Part shown: piece by piece, positions 9,621-30,343 of the stretch | How positions within the stretch are numbered: position 1 is the first letter of the stretch | Layout of the letters: each line of letters begins with the position of its first letter | Virus record (IMG/VR): IMGVR_UViG_3300022555_000030 | Span: 24,295-88,294 of that record | Length of the DNA stretch: 64,000 bases | Direction: 5' to 3' (one strand) | From: a virus | Taxonomy: Duplodnaviria > Caudoviricetes | Made by a program: the position numbers and the translations under genes | The notes under the pieces: generated by a model | Databases searched by the model: none | What the model was told of the DNA's origin: nothing | What the model saw: the letters and a program-made list of their open reading frames with translations, nothing else

Positions 9621-10739
9621 GTGACTATGATGTTAGGGGCAGATCCAGAATTTGAAGTTCAAACAAAAGGTGGTATATTCAAGAATGCTAGTGGTTTCTT
9701 CTCCACTGATACTTCTGAGAAACTTGGCTGCGATGGGTGCAGTAACACAGGAGAACTCCGCCCAGCTCCAGGTGATGGCAAATTTGTTACTAATGAAATC
9801 AAAGGACTATTAACTCGTGCTTTCCAACGTATTGGTGCTAACAATAGATTAATCGGTGGTTGTGGTGTTACTGTCTCCCTCGGTGGGCATATTCATCTTT
9901 CTGATGTAGCTCGTGACTCTACTATCCTGGCAATGCTTGATAAGTTTATTGCTATTCCTCTTAGACAAGTGTCTAATACTCGTATCCGCGATAATCATGG
10001 TTATGGTAGGCTTAGTGAATACAGAAGTCAACCCTGGGGATGGGAATATCGTGCTCCATGTTCTTGGATTATCCATCCTGCCATTGTTAAAGGGGTATTA
10101 TTAACTGCTGAGTACATTGCAAAAGCCAAGACGGCTAACAGGACATTATTAGAATTTGATGATCTCTATAATTTTGTTGCTGAGACATCTCAAGAAGATA
10201 TGCTCACTGTTAAACGTTTCCAGCACATTGTCTATTCCTTAATACAGAATAACCGTAAAATTGAATCAATGGAAGTCTTTAATGGTTGGGGCTTTATGGA
10301 CAATGTAGCAACCACGGTAATTCAAAGCAAGATATTCAGATTTGAATTCTCAAGTGATTACTTAATGGATCAAATTAATAGAGAGTTAGATTATACACGG
10401 ATTAATCTGTCCCATATTCTCCCTGTTGAAACAATCCGAATATGCGGTGCGTCTGATATTCGTGCTAACTTTGAACCGGCATTCTTTGTGCCTGTACGAC
10501 TTCGCCCAGTGTTTCCTCTTTATGTGCAACATACAAAAGTATTGACTTGGGACTTGGATACTATTGGTATCACTCGAAAGTTAAGAGAAGTATATTCACC
10601 CGTAAAGATTGCTTCTATGCTCAATGAACTTCGACGTTATGCAAAAAGGAATTATTTTAAACTCAGTGAGAATAATACCTGCACAATTGATAGAGAAGCA
10701 ATAACAACTAAAAGAATAATTGAAGGAGTAACTGTATAA
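9621..10739 (+). CDS. phiEco32-like COOH-NH2 ligase (type 2) with C-terminal extension
   Basis: LGADPEF, LGCDG, GELRPAP, LGGHIH and GWEYR motifs; GTG start with SD GGAGG. Confidence 0.85.
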   Translation: MTMMLGADPEFEVQTKGGIFKNASGFFSTDTSEKLGCDGCSNTGELRPAPGDGKFVTNEIKGLLTRAFQRIGANNRLIGGCGVTVSLGGHIHLSDVARDSTILAMLDKFIAIPLRQVSNTRIRDNHGYGRLSEYRSQPWGWEYRAPCSWIIHPAIVKGVLLTAEYIAKAKTANRTLLEFDDLYNFVAETSQEDMLTVKRFQHIVYSLIQNNRKIESMEVFNGWGFMDNVATTVIQSKIFRFEFSSDYLMDQINRELDYTRINLSHILPVETIRICGASDIRANFEPAFFVPVRLRPVFPLYVQHTKVLTWDLDTIGITRKLREVYSPVKIASMLNELRRYAKRNYFKLSENNTCTIDREAITTKRIIEGVTV

Positions 10740-11515
10740 TGTGTGGAATCTCTGGGTACATCTCAAATAAGAATAATCCCCTGGGATGGGATAAAATCCA
10801 GAAGTTATGGCTTAGTATTGAAAACCGTGGCAAAGATGCAAGCGGTGTTGCATGGAGTAATGGTGACTATTATATTAATATCTTAAAGGGGAATATGAGT
10901 ATATCTGAATTCATAAAATCTCCTGAAGTATTAGCTCATAGAGAGTCTATAGAGAACTCAAAAATGGTTATGCTTCACACTCGCGCCGCAACGCATGGAT
11001 CCCCTACAGACAATAATAATAATCATCCTATATTCAATGGTCGTGGCGTCTTAATTCATAATGGTATTGTAAAGACTAAAAAACAATACAAAGGGAAAGG
11101 AATTTGTGACTCTGAACAATTAATGCTTGCTATACAGAATGAAGGTTGGGAGAAGTCAATTGTAGGTACATCCGGTATGATGGCTATTGCATACTTTGAT
11201 ACTTTAAATAAAAGTTTGTATTTATACCGGGATACATCTCCGATGTTCTATACTGATGATAAAGAATTAATTGTGTATAACTCATATTTTTATCCTTTGA
11301 AGTCGAATATATCTGACAATGTAATAGAAAAGAAACCATATTCAATCCTTCGAATTAAAGAGGATACTCTTGAAAAGAAAGTTATCATGACATTCGTCGC
11401 TCCCAAGACTCAGTCATTCATTCCAAAGCATAATAAGACTTATGCTCCTGCTTATGGTGCTGCGCATGATTGGAAACAAACTTATGGATATGGTATGTAC
11501 GATGGTTGCTATTAG
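10739..11515 (+). CDS. Class II (Ntn) glutamine amidotransferase
   Basis: MCGI N-terminal Cys; RGKDASG; HTRAATHG; HPI; HNG; DSE. Confidence 0.9.
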   Translation: MCGISGYISNKNNPLGWDKIQKLWLSIENRGKDASGVAWSNGDYYINILKGNMSISEFIKSPEVLAHRESIENSKMVMLHTRAATHGSPTDNNNNHPIFNGRGVLIHNGIVKTKKQYKGKGICDSEQLMLAIQNEGWEKSIVGTSGMMAIAYFDTLNKSLYLYRDTSPMFYTDDKELIVYNSYFYPLKSNISDNVIEKKPYSILRIKEDTLEKKVIMTFVAPKTQSFIPKHNKTYAPAYGAAHDWKQTYGYGMYDGCY

Positions 11516-16921: not shown

Positions 16922-17518
16922 TTATACTATTTTATCAGCAATACCATAATCTATAGCTTCTTCCGCCCCCATCCAATATTCCTTATTTATATCTTTTAAT
17001 ATTTGCTTACTACTTTTAGTTGCACCACATTCTATTAAATTATCAATTAATAATGATTTATTTTTATTAATTTCTTTAGATTGCAATGCAATATCATCTG
17101 AATCACCCTCAGCATTGCCTGACGGCAAATGTAACATTATTCTAGTATTCTTATATACATATCTATGTCCTTTTGTACCTGCAGCTAATATGAGCACTGC
17201 CATAGATTGGCAACTTCTACCATATGTATGTATCTCTGAACCAATTTTCGATACTTCTCTCATAGTATCAAATAATGTGAAACCACTAGATACATAACCG
17301 CCAGGGGAATCAATATATAATTTTATAGGTGCATGTTCTTGAGCATCAAGTGCAAGAATCATATCTTGAGTATACATAGAACTATATGCATCTGAACGAA
17401 GCATTACAGGTGCAATTATTCCATAAAGAAATAATGATCTATTCTTTCTGAGTAATAGTTCATGAGGTCCCATTAATTCATTCTTTTTAATATTATCAGG
17501 CCTTTGAAAATATTCCAT
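16922..17518 (-). CDS. clpP: ClpP-like serine protease (S14), copy 1
   Basis: LYIDSPGG, QSMA (Ser), IMLHLPSG (His), AEEAIDYGIADKI. Confidence 0.92.
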   Translation of the reverse strand: MEYFQRPDNIKKNELMGPHELLLRKNRSLFLYGIIAPVMLRSDAYSSMYTQDMILALDAQEHAPIKLYIDSPGGYVSSGFTLFDTMREVSKIGSEIHTYGRSCQSMAVLILAAGTKGHRYVYKNTRIMLHLPSGNAEGDSDDIALQSKEINKNKSLLIDNLIECGATKSSKQILKDINKEYWMGAEEAIDYGIADKIV

Positions 17519-17537
17519 AATTCTTTTCTCCTTTCTA

Positions 17538-18107
17538 CTATTCTTTAATATTTATATTAATATATGATCTAGAAGCTATATAATCACTAGATTGAACTAT
17601 AATTTGCAATATATCCCCAGTCTCTACCCCATTTTCAAATGGAAAATCCCAATGGCTCATATGAGTAACTATAAGTTTTGCTATTTTCTTAAAATTTTTA
17701 TTATTTGAAATATATTCAAATTCTTCTTTACCAGAGAACATAGTATAAAATGCACATCCATGGCCATGTATACAATATCCAAGATCATTAGGATAACCAT
17801 GATGAGTTATATCATGCAATAATAGTGCTGATAATATACAATCTCTATCATCACCTGATATATTAAATTCTCTACAAAGATCTTCTCCTACTTTAAATGC
17901 TTTTTTAATATGGATTACTAATCCCCCGGCACAATTTTCATCAGCAGGATGATATTTGCCAGAACTTGAAGATGCTATATTCCAAAAATATTCAGGTGCG
18001 CGTAATAATGTATTAATAGTAAATTGCTGAATATCTTGATTATTTATTTTTCTTATTTCTGATAAAAAATTCTTATCTATTCTTGATCTATTATTATTTT
18101 GCACCAT
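17538..18107 (-). CDS. HD-domain phosphohydrolase
   Basis: SSSGKYHP...GGLVIH...LLHDI...HGH...THM...SDY. Confidence 0.85.
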   Translation of the reverse strand: MVQNNNRSRIDKNFLSEIRKINNQDIQQFTINTLLRAPEYFWNIASSSSGKYHPADENCAGGLVIHIKKAFKVGEDLCREFNISGDDRDCILSALLLHDITHHGYPNDLGYCIHGHGCAFYTMFSGKEEFEYISNNKNFKKIAKLIVTHMSHWDFPFENGVETGDILQIIVQSSDYIASRSYININIKE

Positions 18108-23217: not shown

Positions 23218-23698
23218 TAATATTCTCCGCTACAGCTAATTTAGATAATGTATTAATAATCTGAGATTTTAATTTATAACTTTCTGTTCCTGAATTTTTT
23301 TGTATCTCTTCTCGTAAAGTATTATTATATTTTTCAAGATCTCTCATTTTATTAGTTTGTTCATTATACATTTCTTGATAATTTTCAATATCATGCTTTA
23401 ATGATTCTATTTCTAATTTATTATCAGAACTAGATCCTTTACCTAATCCTACTACACTTTCATCAAGAACACCCTCTTTAATGGCTGTAGCAATTAATTT
23501 AGAGAACATTGCATCTGTAAGAATAGTAACTGCTGGACTATCATCAGGAATATCAATATCAACTCCTTCTAAATCAAAATTCTGGATTTTCTTAATAGAT
23601 TCATTTTGAATATCTAAGATTCTCCATGTTCCTGTAATCTTATTAAAAGTTATTTGATATTTATCTAATTTCCCAAAGTCATTTGATAATGTATTCAT
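23192..23698 (-). CDS. Hypothetical coiled-coil protein between TerL and portal (start probably 23698)
   Basis: ATGA overlap with the TerL stop. Confidence 0.7.
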   Translation of the reverse strand: MNTLSNDFGKLDKYQITFNKITGTWRILDIQNESIKKIQNFDLEGVDIDIPDDSPAVTILTDAMFSKLIATAIKEGVLDESVVGLGKGSSSDNKLEIESLKHDIENYQEMYNEQTNKMRDLEKYNNTLREEIQKNSGTESYKLKSQIINTLSKLAVAENINEIERISR

Positions 23699-25464
23699 TC
23701 CTTCTCCATTACTGCCCCACAAATAAGGCATTTTATTTTAGTTTCTTCTCCGGGGTTAACTAAACTATTATTTTTACTATATACTAACCCTTCTTTATAC
23801 CCACATGATACACATACTCTATTATTCTTATTATAATCAAAATTATTAGGAATTGGTAATTTCCTATTTTTCATATCTATAAGATCAAATGCTTCTTCTA
23901 ATGAATTAGAAACTTGTATATATGTGTTACTTTCACTAGGACGATCTGAAAATATAGAATTTAAAGACCCATAACTTACTATATTAGAGCCTTTGCCTGC
24001 AAATGACATAGCTACTGCATCAAACTTATCAGGACTCCTACCAATACGTTCTTTAGTGTCTTTTTTAGGCTCTACTTTAAATTGACCTTTTGATGTAAAT
24101 TCAAATTGTATACCAGTAATTTCTGCAGCTAAATCATTATCTTCAGGTAATTTAATTTCATTCTTTTCTAATGCATTACGAACATTCCAATACATTTCTG
24201 AACGCAAATTAAAATAATGTTCTGGATCATGAGCAGTTGCGCCAGCAATAATAGCATTAATATCATAACCTAATTCTTTTAAACGGTCACATACTCCATT
24301 ACCAACACCAATATAATCTATATTAACAGCATCAGGTTTTATTTTATCTATTTCATTTTTAACTATGCCGGCGGTTTCCATTGTATCTTTATGTTGCCAT
24401 TCTTTTAATGGTTCTATAATATTACCATCACGAATACATAATACAGAAGAATCTTCACCTTGATTAGCTACATCAACAGCTAATATTTTTTTGCCTCTTT
24501 CTGCATCTTCTTTTTCCATTGCTCTTTCAACCCAAGATAATGGAACAAACTGATTATCACCAACTAAAGGAAATTCTCCAAGTACTTTTACTCTAAATAA
24601 TGGATTATCCATACCCCATGTAATAAATTTTTGATATGCCCAATAAGGATTTGATAAATATTGGCGAGGTAATTTATCAGTTATTTTTTGTTGCCATGTA
24701 TTATTTATAAAATCTTCAAGTGTTATTCCAAATTTAGTAAAATTAGGAGAATCAAATACAGAAACATGAAACGATTTATAAAATTTTGACTTAAATGATC
24801 TTCCAAAATCTGTTTGTTCATCTGTAGGATTTCCTATTAATAATAAGCGTACTATATAACCTGAGGATAAAAGACCTTCAATAGCTTCAAAAATTTTTGA
24901 ACCAACACCAGCGGCTTCATCTACAATTACTAATATATAATCATTATGAAAGCCTTGGAATCTATCTAATGATGTTTCATCTGTAGTAAAACCTTCAGCA
25001 AACCATTTTTTTTCAGTTGACATTATTAATTGCTGGGTAAGCATTCTCCCGCCAAGATTAACTTTAGCTGCATAATATTGAGCTGCAATTTCTTTCCAAA
25101 GAATACCACGAACTTGGCGCCCTGTTGGTGCTGTAGTAATTACTGTTGAAGGCATATATGAATTAATAAACCAATGTACTGCCGCACCAGCAATCCAAGA
25201 TTTACCCATACCATGAGCACTTCTTACAGTAGTCCTTTCATTATCTCTTAATGAACATAGAATTTCTTGCTGTTTTTCATAAGGATCAGAATTTAATATT
25301 TCTCTACAAAATTCTACTGGGTGAGTCCTATAATATATTCTTTTTTCATCTGTAATAGGAACTACTTGCTCTGCAATTTGTTTTTTAGAAGATACTACTA
25401 ATAAATCACCAGCAGCTTTTAATGCATCTTCTAAAGATAATAGTTTTTTACTATTATTATCCAC
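23695..25464 (-). CDS. terL: Terminase large subunit
   Basis: Walker A SAHGMGKS, Walker B VIVDEA, GNP, nuclease DVA...D and SPDKFDA; C-terminal CxxC...CxxC. Confidence 0.95.
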   Translation of the reverse strand: MDNNSKKLLSLEDALKAAGDLLVVSSKKQIAEQVVPITDEKRIYYRTHPVEFCREILNSDPYEKQQEILCSLRDNERTTVRSAHGMGKSWIAGAAVHWFINSYMPSTVITTAPTGRQVRGILWKEIAAQYYAAKVNLGGRMLTQQLIMSTEKKWFAEGFTTDETSLDRFQGFHNDYILVIVDEAAGVGSKIFEAIEGLLSSGYIVRLLLIGNPTDEQTDFGRSFKSKFYKSFHVSVFDSPNFTKFGITLEDFINNTWQQKITDKLPRQYLSNPYWAYQKFITWGMDNPLFRVKVLGEFPLVGDNQFVPLSWVERAMEKEDAERGKKILAVDVANQGEDSSVLCIRDGNIIEPLKEWQHKDTMETAGIVKNEIDKIKPDAVNIDYIGVGNGVCDRLKELGYDINAIIAGATAHDPEHYFNLRSEMYWNVRNALEKNEIKLPEDNDLAAEITGIQFEFTSKGQFKVEPKKDTKERIGRSPDKFDAVAMSFAGKGSNIVSYGSLNSIFSDRPSESNTYIQVSNSLEEAFDLIDMKNRKLPIPNNFDYNKNNRVCVSCGYKEGLVYSKNNSLVNPGEETKIKCLICGAVMEKE

Positions 25465-25693
25465 TATTTTTATTCCATTTAAAGAACTTTATCATTGTCC
25501 CGCATTTATGTTTATATTTATTAGTATTTTCAATTTGGGTCATTGTAGAATCTTTTTCAAGTCTTCCATTAATAATATCTAAAAAGTACATTGATTTGCA
25601 TGTACTACATTGTGCTATTACTGTTTCGCACTGATAAGATTTCCGAGGCTTCATCATGTAACCTCCTTGCGATTCTTCCTTTAACTTCATCAT
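25457..25693 (-). CDS. Small Cys-containing protein
   Basis: CSTC...HKCG. Confidence 0.6.
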   Translation of the reverse strand: MMKLKEESQGGYMMKPRKSYQCETVIAQCSTCKSMYFLDIINGRLEKDSTMTQIENTNKYKHKCGTMIKFFKWNKNSG

Positions 25694-26162
25694 CCGTTAT
25701 CTCTTCTGCTAATATTTTCATTATTTTTTGAATAAATTTAAATGATACTAATCCTGTAATTGCTTGCCTTTCACCTTTAACGCCTATATCTATAAGACCG
25801 GCTGCATCTGTAATTTTATCAATTATTAATGTATCATCCCGTAATCCTTCAACACCTTTATCAATCATTTCACGATATACATTTTTATGTTGTTCAATTC
25901 TATTAATGATAGAATGTTCTGCATCTGATTCTATAATATTACTAGCTTTTTCTATCATTGCAGTACGCTTTTCAGCCCAACCTCGTGAAATAATCCACGT
26001 ATTTACTAATGTTTGGCTAGCATTACGGCCTACAAGTTTAGATATTTCTTCTGCTATTTCTCGAGAACAAACGCCTTTATAAAACATTTTTTCCGCTATA
26101 AGCTTTACTTCTTCAGGCCATAACATAAATTTTTTACCAGAAGTATTTGGAGATTTACCCAT
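25605..26162 (-). CDS. Probable terminase small subunit (HTH)
   Basis: N-terminal HTH-like segment ending TW...GW; upstream of TerL. Confidence 0.55.
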   Translation of the reverse strand: MGKSPNTSGKKFMLWPEEVKLIAEKMFYKGVCSREIAEEISKLVGRNASQTLVNTWIISRGWAEKRTAMIEKASNIIESDAEHSIINRIEQHKNVYREMIDKGVEGLRDDTLIIDKITDAAGLIDIGVKGERQAITGLVSFKFIQKIMKILAEEITDDEVKGRIARRLHDEASEILSVRNSNSTM

Positions 26163-26468
26163 TTATAGTTTCCTTTTTGTCTTTACATTCTTCATATCTT
26201 TTTCTGGAATTGATATAGGCTGCATCTTTGTAAAATCAATATGTCCTAATGATTTATCGGATCTTGTACGACATTCTGCTAAATTATAATCTATTATCCC
26301 ACCACAAATATTTCTAGGTTCAATAGCAATTTCTTTACGAATACATTCCCCAAAATATCCATCATCTTCCCCAATAGGTTTGTAATCTTTACAAAATTCA
26401 ATAATATGTTTTTCTTCAAGTTTTTTCCACCAAAGACATTTTATATCATTGCAAAATACTTTAGGCAT
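26163..26468 (-). CDS. Cys-rich hypothetical protein
   Basis: Coupled ORF. Confidence 0.65.
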   Translation of the reverse strand: MPKVFCNDIKCLWWKKLEEKHIIEFCKDYKPIGEDDGYFGECIRKEIAIEPRNICGGIIDYNLAECRTRSDKSLGHIDFTKMQPISIPEKDMKNVKTKRKL

Positions 26469-26806
26469 TACTTGTCCTCCGCTATAACTTTAATAGGGAA
26501 CATAAGATCATACCAATCATTAACACTATCATCTTCAACATTCATATATGATATTATTGTTAATTCATTACCAAGTTCAGTATATTTGCCACATCCTAAA
26601 GATACTTCATTAGGTTTTCCTTGAGTTACAAAAGCTTCAAAATATTCACTAGTAGAATTATTATATACTTTTACAATTTCGCCTATAGCAATACTAGCTT
26701 TTTGTAATAGAGCACTATCTATTTTAATACTGCCATATTCAGCACCAAAATCATTTATTTGCAAATTAGTAATTTTACTTTTAACCATTACTCTTTCAAA
26801 TTTCAT
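26468..26806 (-). CDS. Divergent aspartate 1-decarboxylase (PanD)-like protein
   Basis: RVMVKSKI...YGSIKIDSALL..A.I...E.V.VYN...FE.FV...G..L.IISY; Gly-Ser cleavage site retained. Confidence 0.75.
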   Translation of the reverse strand: MKFERVMVKSKITNLQINDFGAEYGSIKIDSALLQKASIAIGEIVKVYNNSTSEYFEAFVTQGKPNEVSLGCGKYTELGNELTIISYMNVEDDSVNDWYDLMFPIKVIAEDK

Positions 26807-26808
26807 AT

Positions 26809-27393
26809 TTACTCCTCTATCCTATCAATTAAACCTAATTCTAATGCTTCTTTACAATCATAATATTGTGGGGTGCTTTCATCAAGAATTGATGCCCAAA
26901 ATTCTTTTGTATGATGAATAGGATCTTCTGAAGTATTCTCAATTGCAATAATTTCAGAAAAATCTACTTGGAACTTATCCATAATCTTTTTCTGTGAATC
27001 AATATCTTTCTTATCACCAATAGAAAATCCTGATGCTCCATGGCACATAAGTACATCATATTTACCCATTATTCGTTCATCACAACATTGTAAAATCATA
27101 AAAGCTATAGACATTGCATAGCCTTGAACATTTCCAATAAATCTAATACCCTGTTTTTGAAATTCTTTCATTGCACGAATAATAGCTAAACCACCATATA
27201 CTTCACCACCAGGAGATGAAATATTCAATTTGATATCTTTATGCCCATAATATATAGCATATTTAACTTGTGCTCTAAAGTATGATATCTCATTCCCAAA
27301 TATTTCATCACATATTTCAACTTCACCATTTTTACCAGAGATATAATCTTTAAATTCAAATTTAAGCTTTACATCTAATTCAAGATCTTTCAA
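26809..27393 (-). CDS. clpP: ClpP-like serine protease (S14), copy 2
   Basis: ISSPGGEVYGG, AMSIA (Ser), LMCHG (His), EALELGLID; probable TTG start with SD AAGGAG. Confidence 0.85.
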   Translation of the reverse strand: MKDLELDVKLKFEFKDYISGKNGEVEICDEIFGNEISYFRAQVKYAIYYGHKDIKLNISSPGGEVYGGLAIIRAMKEFQKQGIRFIGNVQGYAMSIAFMILQCCDERIMGKYDVLMCHGASGFSIGDKKDIDSQKKIMDKFQVDFSEIIAIENTSEDPIHHTKEFWASILDESTPQYYDCKEALELGLIDRIEE

Positions 27394-27448: not shown

Positions 27449-30343
27449 CTAAATACTACATTTTCCCCCATCACATTCACTAAGATGCCCATCATTAGTG
27501 GCTTTTAATGGTGCATCTCTACTACCATCACGATATACTGTAATTCCTTTACAACCTAAAGAATGAGCAAGAAGATATGCATCATTAATATGCTCTAAAG
27601 TTGCATTATTATGAAGATTAATAGTCTTACTTACTGCATTATCTGTATATTGCTGAAATGCTGCTTGCATATTAATATGCTGTTCAATTGTTAATTCATG
27701 AGAAGTGACTACAGCCATTTCCTGTTCTTCAGTATATTTTTTACTAAGATCCAATTTTACTCCATTCAGCACAGTCTTTGTATATTCTCTAGCAAATAAT
27801 GGCTCAATACTACTAGATGTATTAGCTAATACAGAGAGGGTACCGGTCGGGGCGATTGTGGTGAGGGTTGCATTACGTCTTTTTAATTGCTCTAATGCCC
27901 CTAAACCTTTTTCTTTGCCTAAATCTCTTGAAGTCATATGAGCAACTTCTCTAATATTCATCATAAGCCTTTTAGCAAGTTTTATGGCTTCTTCTGAGTC
28001 ATATCTAATACCCATTTCGATAAGAGCATCAGCCCAACCCATAATTCCTAAACCTACTTTTCGAGTCATTTTTGTTTTACGTTCAATTTTAATAGTAGGG
28101 AACTTATTTACATCAATAACATCATCAAGAAATCTAGCTGCAATAGCTACCACTACTGCTAATTTATCCCAATCAATTTTATTCCCTTTTATAAATTTTG
28201 CTATATCAATAGACCCTAAATTACAACTTTCATATGGTAAAAGAGGTTGCTCTCCACATTGCATTGTATTTATAAATATCTGTTCTTTCCCATTTTCAAA
28301 ACCGCCTATATAATAATTATGGAAATCATCGACTGTACCATTATAAACATCTTCATATCCATCTTCCGTAACATAAATTACTTTATGATTTGAATATACA
28401 AATAATTCTTTTGGAATACCTTTACGTTGTTCAGCAAGTTTATTATTCCAGCATTTATGGCTACAATAAGAAACTTCTCTTTTTGCCCATTTTACTGAAA
28501 AATTAATGCCACATCTCTCACATTTTTTCTCAACCATTACAATATTATTATTCAAATAACATCTTAAATCTGTTTTATTTTTACATTCTTCTAACTTTTG
28601 TTGAGATCGTTCTTTAATAGCTAAATCAAGATTTTCTAGAGCGTTATTAAGACCATTCCTATCTTTATGATGAACAATTGATTTATAGCCTATTTTTCCA
28701 AAACCATAATTAGCAATTAATCTATGCTCTAAATTAAAAGTTTTTTCATTGCTATTTTTTATCCATATATAATCTTGAGAAATGCTATTTGAATGCGCTA
28801 AAATTTCGTTAAATTTAGCTTTTTTCTTAATTAAAATATTTAAACTATCTCCATTTTGTAATTTCTCTGCTTCTTTTTTAGTTCCATCTGAAAGAATAAA
28901 TTTATGATTTCCAGTAACTCTTAAGCTATTACCATCATCTAAAGTAATCTTATATATTTTTTGTGAATATCCTGTAACTCTTGGATTTCTTAATATTCTA
29001 ATTTTTGTTTTTCCATTATCACTACAATATACAGGAACATCTTTTCCTTCTTCTGCTAATTGTTTAATTGATATTGCACCTCTCCCATCTGCAATTGCAA
29101 TTAAAGTATCTCCCGATAAACAAGGGTTAGTTCCTTCAATATTCCCAAGCCATGGAGTAGGATTTTTAGCATTAATAGAGTCTAAGAATATAAGTCCGGG
29201 TTCTCCAGTCTTCCAAGCTTGGGTGCATATAGCCTCCCATAATCTTTCAGCTTTAATATATATCTTTTCTTTAGTCCTAGGATTAATTAAAGGATATCCA
29301 TTCCTTTGCTTTACTGCTTTTAAGAAATTATCAGTAATTCCTACACTCATATTAAAATTACTAAATTGAGAAATATCTTCCTTACATCTTATAAAATTAA
29401 AAATATCTGGATGAGAACAATGAAGAATACCCATATTTGCTCCACGGCGAACACCACCTTGCTTAACTACATCAGTAGCAGTATCAAATACTCTCATAAA
29501 TGATACTGGGCCAGAAGCAACACCGGATGTACTTGCGACCATACTATTTGCTGGTCTTATATTAGAGAATAAAAGCCCGGTACCCCCTCCACTTTTATGT
29601 ATAAGCGCTGTTTGTTTCACTTGTTCAAAAATATTAGATAAATTATCCTCCATCGGGAGAAGAAAACAATTATGAACAAAAATATTATTTGCAGCAAAAT
29701 TATGATATTTATCTACTGATAAATCATATACATCTTCTCTACCGCAATATTCTATAGATACGACTTTATGATTATAATCATAATTAAGAGGCATTATTGA
29801 TTGACCTACAGATAATTCATCTACTCTACTAAATTTACCATTTCTATGCATAATAAGATGATCTTTTGTAGCTTTTAATTCACTCCCGTCATCAAATTTA
29901 ATTAAGAATACTTCTTCATTTTTTCTTGTTAATCTAGGATTAAAAGCCTTTCCTATACCTAACTCTGAAAAAGATGCAGCACAAAAAACATCAAATTTTT
30001 CATTAGGTTTATCTTTATATTTTTCTGCTAATTCTTTTATTGTAAAATCACCAGCACAAGTTCTAATAATAGTATTCCCAGAAAGACAAGCACTCAATTG
30101 TCCTAATTCTTTTCCTGAATTCATAAGTGTAGGACTATTAGGTAAAAATTCAAGAGTATCCATAATACTCATAAATTTATCATACCAATAATTTTTTAAT
30201 TCATTTGTTTTCTCTGCATTTGATATATGTTTTGCAACACGCTCAAGCATTTGGTCTGGTGTCTCTATTACAACCCCTTTTTTATCTTTTAATAGATATC
30301 TTGCTTCCAAAATAGGAATAGCATTATTACTCCATTTAGCCAT
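27449..30343 (-). CDS. nrdJ: Class II (B12-dependent) ribonucleotide reductase with two inteins
   Basis: FLPNSPTL, QLSA/CF, RRGANMG, GEPG, NP/CGE, SCNLGS, TIAPTG, SKTIN; C-terminal Cys pair. Confidence 0.93.
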   Translation of the reverse strand: MAKWSNNAIPILEARYLLKDKKGVVIETPDQMLERVAKHISNAEKTNELKNYWYDKFMSIMDTLEFLPNSPTLMNSGKELGQLSACLSGNTIIRTCAGDFTIKELAEKYKDKPNEKFDVFCAASFSELGIGKAFNPRLTRKNEEVFLIKFDDGSELKATKDHLIMHRNGKFSRVDELSVGQSIMPLNYDYNHKVVSIEYCGREDVYDLSVDKYHNFAANNIFVHNCFLLPMEDNLSNIFEQVKQTALIHKSGGGTGLLFSNIRPANSMVASTSGVASGPVSFMRVFDTATDVVKQGGVRRGANMGILHCSHPDIFNFIRCKEDISQFSNFNMSVGITDNFLKAVKQRNGYPLINPRTKEKIYIKAERLWEAICTQAWKTGEPGLIFLDSINAKNPTPWLGNIEGTNPCLSGDTLIAIADGRGAISIKQLAEEGKDVPVYCSDNGKTKIRILRNPRVTGYSQKIYKITLDDGNSLRVTGNHKFILSDGTKKEAEKLQNGDSLNILIKKKAKFNEILAHSNSISQDYIWIKNSNEKTFNLEHRLIANYGFGKIGYKSIVHHKDRNGLNNALENLDLAIKERSQQKLEECKNKTDLRCYLNNNIVMVEKKCERCGINFSVKWAKREVSYCSHKCWNNKLAEQRKGIPKELFVYSNHKVIYVTEDGYEDVYNGTVDDFHNYYIGGFENGKEQIFINTMQCGEQPLLPYESCNLGSIDIAKFIKGNKIDWDKLAVVVAIAARFLDDVIDVNKFPTIKIERKTKMTRKVGLGIMGWADALIEMGIRYDSEEAIKLAKRLMMNIREVAHMTSRDLGKEKGLGALEQLKRRNATLTTIAPTGTLSVLANTSSSIEPLFAREYTKTVLNGVKLDLSKKYTEEQEMAVVTSHELTIEQHINMQAAFQQYTDNAVSKTINLHNNATLEHINDAYLLAHSLGCKGITVYRDGSRDAPLKATNDGHLSECDGGKCSI
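28259..29122 (-). mobile_element. Intein (288 aa) at NP/CGE with HNH domain and C-terminal Gln
   Basis: CLSGDT...TGNH...HRL...VHHKD.N..NN..ENL...VYNGTVDDFHNY...INTMQ followed by Cys+1. Confidence 0.9.
29669..30088 (-). mobile_element. Mini-intein (140 aa) at QLSA/CF
   Basis: CLSGNT...TKDH...VYDLSV...FVHN followed by Cys+1. Confidence 0.92.

Follow-up and report, generated by a model that had tools for sequence, protein, structure and literature searches.

The DNA analysed here, hereafter the window, is a stretch of 64,000 nucleotides (positions 24,295 to 88,294) of the IMG/VR virus record IMGVR_UViG_3300022555_000030, a tailed-phage contig with a low GC content (31.5%). We examined a minus-strand open reading frame (ORF) in this window whose 112-residue product, P0001, resembles the bacterial aspartate decarboxylase PanD. 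The window encodes a set of replication and nucleotide-metabolism proteins, namely a DnaE-type polymerase, RecA, DnaB, a primase, ThyX, a dCMP deaminase and an intein-bearing ribonucleotide reductase (RNR), together with two ClpP-like proteins, TerL, a portal protein and tail proteins. On the minus strand the genes are ordered as RNR, ClpP-like protease, PanD-like protein, a cysteine-rich protein of 101 residues, a probable small terminase subunit (TerS) of 185 residues, a 78-residue ORF, TerL, a 179-residue ORF and portal (Table 1). The ATG of the PanD-like gene lies 5 nucleotides after a GAGGAG Shine-Dalgarno sequence, and its TAA stop shares one nucleotide with the ATG of the downstream gene (TAATG). 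Since the Shine-Dalgarno sequence is inside the ClpP-like gene and the stop is shared with the next start, the PanD-like gene is well supported and appears to be translationally coupled to both neighbours. A scan for promoter and terminator consensus sequences gave results at the chance level, so that it is the packing of the genes alone that suggests co-transcription.

Table 1. Positions of the features discussed. Coordinates are those of the window unless preceded by a locus number (L).
Feature	Position	Strand	Basis or remark
PanD-like ORF, protein P0001, 112 aa	26468..26806	minus	ORF list; Pfam PF02261; model with PanD fold
GAGGAG Shine-Dalgarno of the PanD-like gene	26812..26817	minus	direct sequence reading; within final codons of the ClpP-like gene
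Codon 11, Lys, equivalent of PanD Lys9	26774..26776	minus	alignments; Val in P0003
Codons 25-26, Gly-Ser (GGC AGT), equivalent of the PanD Gly24-Ser25 cleavage site	26729..26734	minus	alignments; Gly-Val in P0003
Codons 55-59, Y-F-E-A-F replacing PanD R54-F55-E56-T57-Y58	26630..26644	minus	ungapped alignment
Codons 70-74, L-G-C-G-K, PanD L-N-G-x-A-A-R loop two residues shorter	26585..26599	minus	alignments
Codons 96-107, NDWYDLMFPIKV, clade-specific C-terminal motif	26486..26521	minus	P0001/P0003 alignment, segment identities
RNR, intein-bearing	27449-30343	minus	first in minus-strand order, before the ClpP-like gene
ClpP-like serine protease (ClpP copy 2), 194 aa	26809..27393	minus	upstream neighbour; PF00574 52.2 bits, phrog_94
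Cys-rich protein, 101 aa	26163..26468	minus	downstream neighbour, start overlaps PanD-like stop; ORF list and sequence
185-aa protein, probable small terminase subunit	25605..26162	minus	L084 homologue matches Terminase_5, TerS_N
TerL	23695-25464	minus	downstream of the 185-aa protein gene
ClpP copy 1 with the HD-domain protein in front of it	16922-18107	minus	ClpP copy 1, PF00574 133.8 bits; HD-domain protein at 17538-18107
COOH-NH2 ligase (phiEco32 type) and GATase	9621-11515
177-aa protein, position equivalent to the Cys-rich protein	L084:983-1516		shared N-terminal motif
Homologue of the 185-aa protein	L084:2261-2695		E 1e-8
dUTPase behind ClpP copy 2 homologue	L092:3801-4229, L093:2248-2679, L094:1564-1995, L095:5184-5624, L097:933-1361		PF00692 E ~1e-24 in the two scanned, L094 and L097
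panD of Achromobacter phage 2-1, OQ974181.1	L083:2974-3366		directly upstream of the DNA polymerase gene

The relationship of P0001 to PanD was examined by profile and structure comparison. P0001 matched the Pfam family PF02261 (Asp_decarbox) with 47.7 bits (E 1.7e-12; gathering score 25), and its nearest solved structure by sequence in HMMER is that of Francisella PanD, 3oug (E 3.6e-8). When the AlphaFold2 model of P0001 (pLDDT 81.5, pTM 0.76) was used in a Foldseek search, the top 20 matches were all PanD chains (TM 0.76-0.80). VIA-align, which is independent of Foldseek, placed three PanDs at Z 12.4, 12.1 and 11.7, with the best unrelated fold at Z 6.5; the alignment with 3oug (Z 12.4) has an rmsd of 2.4 over 98 residues. 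These results show that P0001 is a PanD-family protein with the double-psi beta-barrel fold of PanD. The identity proposed in a first-pass annotation from a manual alignment is thus borne out by structural alignment. PHROGs contains no family for P0001, nor for bona fide PanDs, and PADLOC returned nothing. No viral structure with the fold of P0001 was found in BFVD at E<1e-3, and the ESM Atlas yielded generic PanD clusters only.

On the panD equivalog model TIGR00223, P0001 scored 37.1 bits, which is below the cut-off of 106. The bona fide PanD P0013 scored 152.6 on the same model, and two cultured-phage PanDs scored 94.1 and 84.8. The identity of P0001 to cellular PanDs is 18-33% in structural alignments and at most ~40% in sequence matches. 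The Pfam match would suit an ordinary aspartate 1-decarboxylase, retained as an auxiliary metabolic gene that boosts beta-alanine and CoA, as would the near-canonical PanDs carried by cultured phages such as Rhodococcus phage Jace. However, P0001 falls 69 bits short of the equivalog cut-off, and Arg54, Thr57, Tyr58, His11, Asn72 and Ile86 are all replaced. We therefore regard this explanation as highly improbable.

The active-site residues were mapped through three concordant alignments, made with HMMER against the E. coli and Francisella PanDs and with MAFFT. The register at positions 54-58 is ungapped and is anchored on both sides by E42, V44, N48, F55, E56 and G62. In addition to the equivalents of Lys9 and Gly24-Ser25, P0001 retains that of Tyr22 (Y24). 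His11 is replaced by Thr (Thr13), Arg54 by Tyr (Tyr55), Thr57 by Ala (Ala58), Tyr58 by Phe (Phe59) and Ile86 by Thr (Thr83). Because the LNGxAAR loop is two residues shorter (L-GCGK), Asn72 is deleted and Ala74-Ala75 are replaced. The earlier residue calls, which had Lys9 and Gly24-Ser25 retained and His11, Arg54, Thr57, Tyr58 and the NGAAA motif replaced, were all correct in both the HMMER and the MAFFT alignments. His11 and Ile86 are each present in 80/80 members of a set of cellular PanDs. The R, T and Y of positions 54-58 are likewise each 80/80, but since the 80 proteins were retrieved through the motif NGxRFxTY, invariance at positions 51-58 is circular and the set was used for other positions only.

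The functions assigned to these residues in PanD indicate what the replacements may mean. Arg54 binds the substrate's beta-carboxylate and is assigned to substrate specificity, Lys9 binds the alpha-carboxylate, Thr57 participates in catalysis and Tyr58 serves as the proton donor for protonation (PMC3314653). In codons 55-59, none of the substrate arginine, the processing threonine and the proton-donor tyrosine is retained, in agreement with the earlier statement that residues implicated in aspartate binding and catalysis appear replaced. Among the 13 residues that are strictly conserved in aspartate decarboxylases (PMC3314653), P0001 keeps 4-5. Mutagenesis of E. coli PanD showed that only Thr57, of the residues around the cleavage site, is required for activation: the T57V variant remains an uncleaved zymogen and forms no ester intermediate, while processing still occurs in Y22F and Y58F (PMC3975893). 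Judged by its sequence context, the retained Gly-Ser site of P0001 is probably a vestige.

The closest relative of P0001 provided a second view of the same site. A HMMER search over 1.84 billion representative proteins gave 14 matches below E 1e-3, of which a single one, P0003, is a close relative (111 residues, 44% identity, E 8.6e-21; 36.1 bits against PF02261). P0003 has Gly-Val for Gly-Ser, Val for Lys9, Met for Tyr22, Ser for Arg54 and Leu for Thr57, and it keeps 1-2 of the 13 strictly conserved residues. Since P0003 has Gly-Val at the cleavage site and Val at Lys9, a function common to P0001 and P0003 cannot need a pyruvoyl group. The weight originally placed on the retained Gly-Ser of P0001 is not supported, as the required Thr57 is missing and the sister protein has Gly-Val.

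In a midpoint-rooted FastTree phylogeny, P0001 and P0003 are sisters (0.98) and are joined by a degenerate singleton, P0015 (0.91), possibly through long-branch attraction; the tree indicated no donor lineage. P0015, a metagenomic singleton on a 508-bp contig, has V-P-F in place of G-S and is without Arg54, Thr57 and Tyr58. Two other metagenomic singletons of the PanD family, P0004 (S-S) and P0009 (G-G), have a broken cleavage site and are otherwise canonical. Profile searches of viral contigs with P0001, the P0001+P0003 alignment, TerL, P0003 and P0015 confirmed no relative, a first scan of metagenomic contigs with the PanD-like alignment found none, and a word-based homologue search returned P0001 itself only.

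The distribution of conserved residues along the two sister proteins differs from that in cellular PanDs. The identity between P0001 and P0003 is 0.75 over residues 1-12 and 0.67 over residues 97-108, and it falls to 0.25-0.33 in the former active-site segments (13-24 and 49-84). For 338 cellular PanD pairs of equal overall divergence, the corresponding values are 0.46, 0.32 and 0.52-0.82, although the cellular figure for segment 49-60 is inflated by retrieval of the set through that motif. In this clade, constraint is no longer centred on the old active site but on the N-terminus and a C-terminal motif, NDWY-x-L-x-x-PIKV. This motif includes a 4-residue insertion that is absent from 80/80 cellular PanDs, and in the model of P0001 it is predicted to form a helix and the last strand.

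Several observations bear on whether the gene is maintained. P0001 and P0003 are both full-length, intact ORFs despite 56% divergence. The identical P0001 protein is recorded on 34 contigs and a one-residue variant on 2 more. The PanD-like gene has a GC content of 27% and a GC3 of 12%, which equal those of the surrounding phage genes; because its composition is the phage's own, long residence is favoured over recent capture. Given the intact ORFs, the strong Shine-Dalgarno sequence, the stop-start overlap, the 34 contigs and the phage-like GC content, the gene looks maintained rather than recently acquired. A captured panD that drifts to loss without a function would account for the massive loss of family-invariant residues, for a distribution as narrow as two sequences among 1.84 billion representatives and for the absence of the gene from related phages. 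But two lineages that have diverged by 56% have both stayed full-length and share new motifs at both termini, and the good Shine-Dalgarno sequence with translational coupling, the confident and compact predicted fold and the identical protein on 34 contigs also speak against decay. We consider a decaying remnant quite unlikely.

Instead, we propose that P0001 is probably a PanD-derived pseudoenzyme that serves as a non-catalytic, accessory binding protein. A bacterial aspartate-decarboxylase gene would have been captured long ago by the phage lineage and retained as an accessory gene, with the double-psi beta-barrel core of PanD kept and its chemistry lost. P0001 would not cleave itself and would carry no pyruvoyl group; it would therefore decarboxylate nothing. 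It may act by binding a putative partner through its conserved N- and C-terminal surface, probably as a small oligomeric barrel. The protein would be made alongside the ClpP-like protease and the packaging proteins owing to the site of its insertion, and not as part of their machinery.

Three points weigh against this proposal. The clade has two members, of which P0003 is a singleton on a 1405-bp contig, and the conservation argument consequently rests on a single pair. P0001 itself keeps Lys9, Tyr22 and Gly-Ser, and these residues could support some residual or altered chemistry in P0001. Finally, the mutant that was tested is T57V and not T57A, and in E. coli PanD only (PMC3975893).

It is conceivable that, at least in the phage of the window, P0001 is a pyruvoyl decarboxylase acting on a substrate other than aspartate, with a Gly-Ser cleavage that is independent of Thr57 and a Tyr/Phe-lined pocket for a hydrophobic or otherwise different amino acid. 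Its product might feed a phage COOH-NH2 ligase/amidotransferase pair, and a phiEco32-type COOH-NH2 ligase and a GATase are indeed encoded in the window. The equivalents of Lys9, Tyr22 and Gly24-Ser25 in P0001 fit such an enzyme, but Thr57 is Ala and Tyr58 is Phe, the sister P0003 is without Ser25 and Lys9, and conservation within the clade is lowest in the former pocket. In addition, the ligase operon is 15 kb off on the opposite strand, and the PanD-like protein of Achromobacter phage 2-1, unlike P0001, retains Thr57 and Tyr58. We judge an active decarboxylase of this kind unlikely. The first-pass annotation had offered a new-substrate decarboxylase and a self-cleaving structural protein as possible functions. 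Both have become unlikely because Thr57 is Ala and the sister protein lacks Gly-Ser and Lys9.

The architecture of PanD raises a further alternative, which the first-pass annotation had listed as a dominant-negative or decoy subunit. In it the partner of P0001 is named, and it is therefore a special case of the pseudoenzyme proposal. The dead PanD copy may join the host PanD tetramer, or titrate a PanD-binding factor, and thereby alter beta-alanine and CoA supply during infection. Each active site of PanD is formed between two subunits, one of which supplies Lys9 and Arg54 to the site of its neighbour (PMC3314653). Mixed tetramers would therefore be crippled. P0001 has retained residues of the barrel core and lost catalytic ones, as a poison subunit might, and dead paralogues of two trypanosome enzymes, taken up below, offer precedents. 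However, an identity to cellular PanDs of 18-33% by structure and at most ~40% by sequence is low for co-assembly, there is no obvious gain from depleting a CoA precursor within one lytic cycle, and the best-conserved parts of the clade are the new termini and not the PanD interface segments. A poison or decoy subunit for host PanD thus appears unlikely to us. A dead subunit that co-assembles with host PanD or another PanD-fold protein and switches its activity is a rather improbable version. If true, it would give the phage control over beta-alanine and CoA supply and would constitute the first example in a virus of prozyme-type regulation, which is known from trypanosome polyamine enzymes. 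The proposal of a binding protein derived from PanD is the one that we carry forward.

The surroundings of the gene were compared with those in related phages by surveying 17 metagenomic loci that encode relatives of ClpP copy 2. A PanD-like ORF was found in 0/17 of these loci using PanD and clade-specific profiles with hmmsearch up to E 10. The closest locus with context is L084, whose ClpP is 54% identical and whose gene order is RNR, ClpP, a cysteine-rich protein, a deaminase-like gene, a small ORF and a homologue of the 185-residue protein. The L084 cysteine-rich protein is a weak homologue of the 101-residue protein of the window and stands directly behind ClpP, with no gene between them. 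In L092-L097 a dUTPase is found directly behind ClpP, and the other loci carry unrelated small genes there. After the dUTPase there is often a nucleoside-deoxyribosyltransferase-like/DUF4406 protein and an RNR. In this phage group, accessory genes vary in the slot behind ClpP copy 2, which lies where the nucleotide-metabolism module meets the packaging module. Since the PanD-like gene is missing from the related loci and the contents of the slot vary, it is a lineage-specific insert, and neither the protease nor the terminase has it as a conserved partner. The linkage to ClpP copy 2 and the terminase genes claimed in the first-pass annotation accordingly stands as a tightly coupled gene string behind ClpP in the window, but it is not conserved across the loci surveyed. 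The accompanying statement that no other pantothenate genes were seen holds for the ~40 window ORFs scanned with Pfam, in which no panB, panC or panE was detected, with small ORFs and the genome beyond the window lying outside the scan.

Some neighbouring products could be characterized further. The cysteine-rich protein had no Pfam, PHROG or phage match, the ESM Atlas gave nothing usable and its model was of very low confidence. Its N-terminus reads M-x-K-V-[FY]-C-N-x-[IL]-x-C, a motif conserved in a 177-residue protein at the equivalent position of L084. The 185-residue protein itself is without a Pfam or PHROG match; it is probably the small terminase subunit because its L084 homologue matches the Terminase_5 and TerS_N helix-turn-helix families. 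The window encodes another ClpP, copy 1, directly behind an HD-domain protein, and cellular ClpP is much closer to copy 1 than to copy 2. The best match of TerL among deposited phages is from the Methanosarcinales-associated virus BK063673.1 (38% identity over 82%), followed by Clostridioides phages (34%). Despite this match, the replication genes for DnaE, RecA and DnaB indicate a bacterial host. No tRNAs that might inform on the host were found.

PanD is a textbook self-processing enzyme, and its phage copies are usually taken for metabolic helper genes. The present case illustrates that a family name can be a misleading annotation: P0001 has kept the fold and the Gly-Ser, but the residues that enable the site are gone and the sister protein is without the serine as well. 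If the proposed binding function is true, P0001 would be an example of a phage turning a small enzyme of its host to a non-catalytic role, and also a natural test of which residues are needed for PanD self-cleavage. As the family is tiny, with two sequences, the finding is of modest general impact.

No paper describing a dead or phage homologue of PanD came up in a literature search. P0001 is like the bacterial PanDs (EC 4.1.1.11; 3oug, E. coli 1ppy/1pt1 and M. tuberculosis 2c45) in length class (~110-140 residues), fold and homology, and in its equivalents of Lys9, Tyr22 and Gly24-Ser25. It differs from them in His11, Arg54, Thr57, Tyr58, Asn72, Ala74/75, Ile86 and the C-terminal element, and in being phage-borne. 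In the cultured-phage collection, few panD genes of canonical appearance belong to real phage genomes, the examples being gp87 of the Rhodococcus/Gordonia phage Jace and the PanD of Achromobacter phage 2-1; most of the other hits were unannotated or very short records resembling host DNA. Like the gene for P0001, the Jace and Achromobacter phage genes are tailed-phage genes outside a pantothenate operon and amid DNA-metabolism genes. Unlike P0001, Jace gp87 retains all catalytic residues. The Achromobacter phage 2-1 protein has His for Arg54 and Asn72 and keeps Lys9, Gly-Ser, Thr57 and Tyr58, whereas P0001 has additionally lost the processing and protonating residues. Among the phage PanDs compared, P0001 differs in having lost both the processing threonine and the proton donor, with its sister having lost the serine too. 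P0001 showed no match to the Achromobacter phage 2-1 PanD clade beyond the general family in the search of 1.84 billion representatives.

When the phage collection was queried with P0001, the only matches were Listeria and Staphylococcus records that lack annotation and resemble host panD. A canonical, host-type panD, 40-54% identical to a bacterial PanD, is present in 'phage' records of 1.4-16 kb that are likewise unannotated and come from Listeria, Staphylococcus, Enterococcus and E. coli (OR848172.1, OR846810.1, OR850446.1, OR846675.1, OR845373.1 and others). These records look like host chromosomal fragments in phage preparations.

Catalytically dead relatives of oligomeric enzymes are known from trypanosomes. 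The trypanosome AdoMetDC 'prozyme' is a catalytically dead paralogue that pairs with the pyruvoyl enzyme AdoMetDC. For trypanosomatid deoxyhypusine synthase, a catalytically dead paralogue is reported to act through a hetero-oligomer (PMC3663545). Such paralogues resemble P0001 in having kept an oligomeric-enzyme fold and lost catalysis and processing; they are cellular, with a demonstrated partner and an activating effect, whereas P0001 is virus-borne and its partner putative. A more distant comparison is provided by the N-domains of Cdc48, VAT and PEX1, in which the double-psi barrel topology of P0001 is used for binding (Z 5.2-5.6, well short of the PanD scores, with no sequence relationship). 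These weak matches indicate only that the barrel fold can serve non-catalytic roles.

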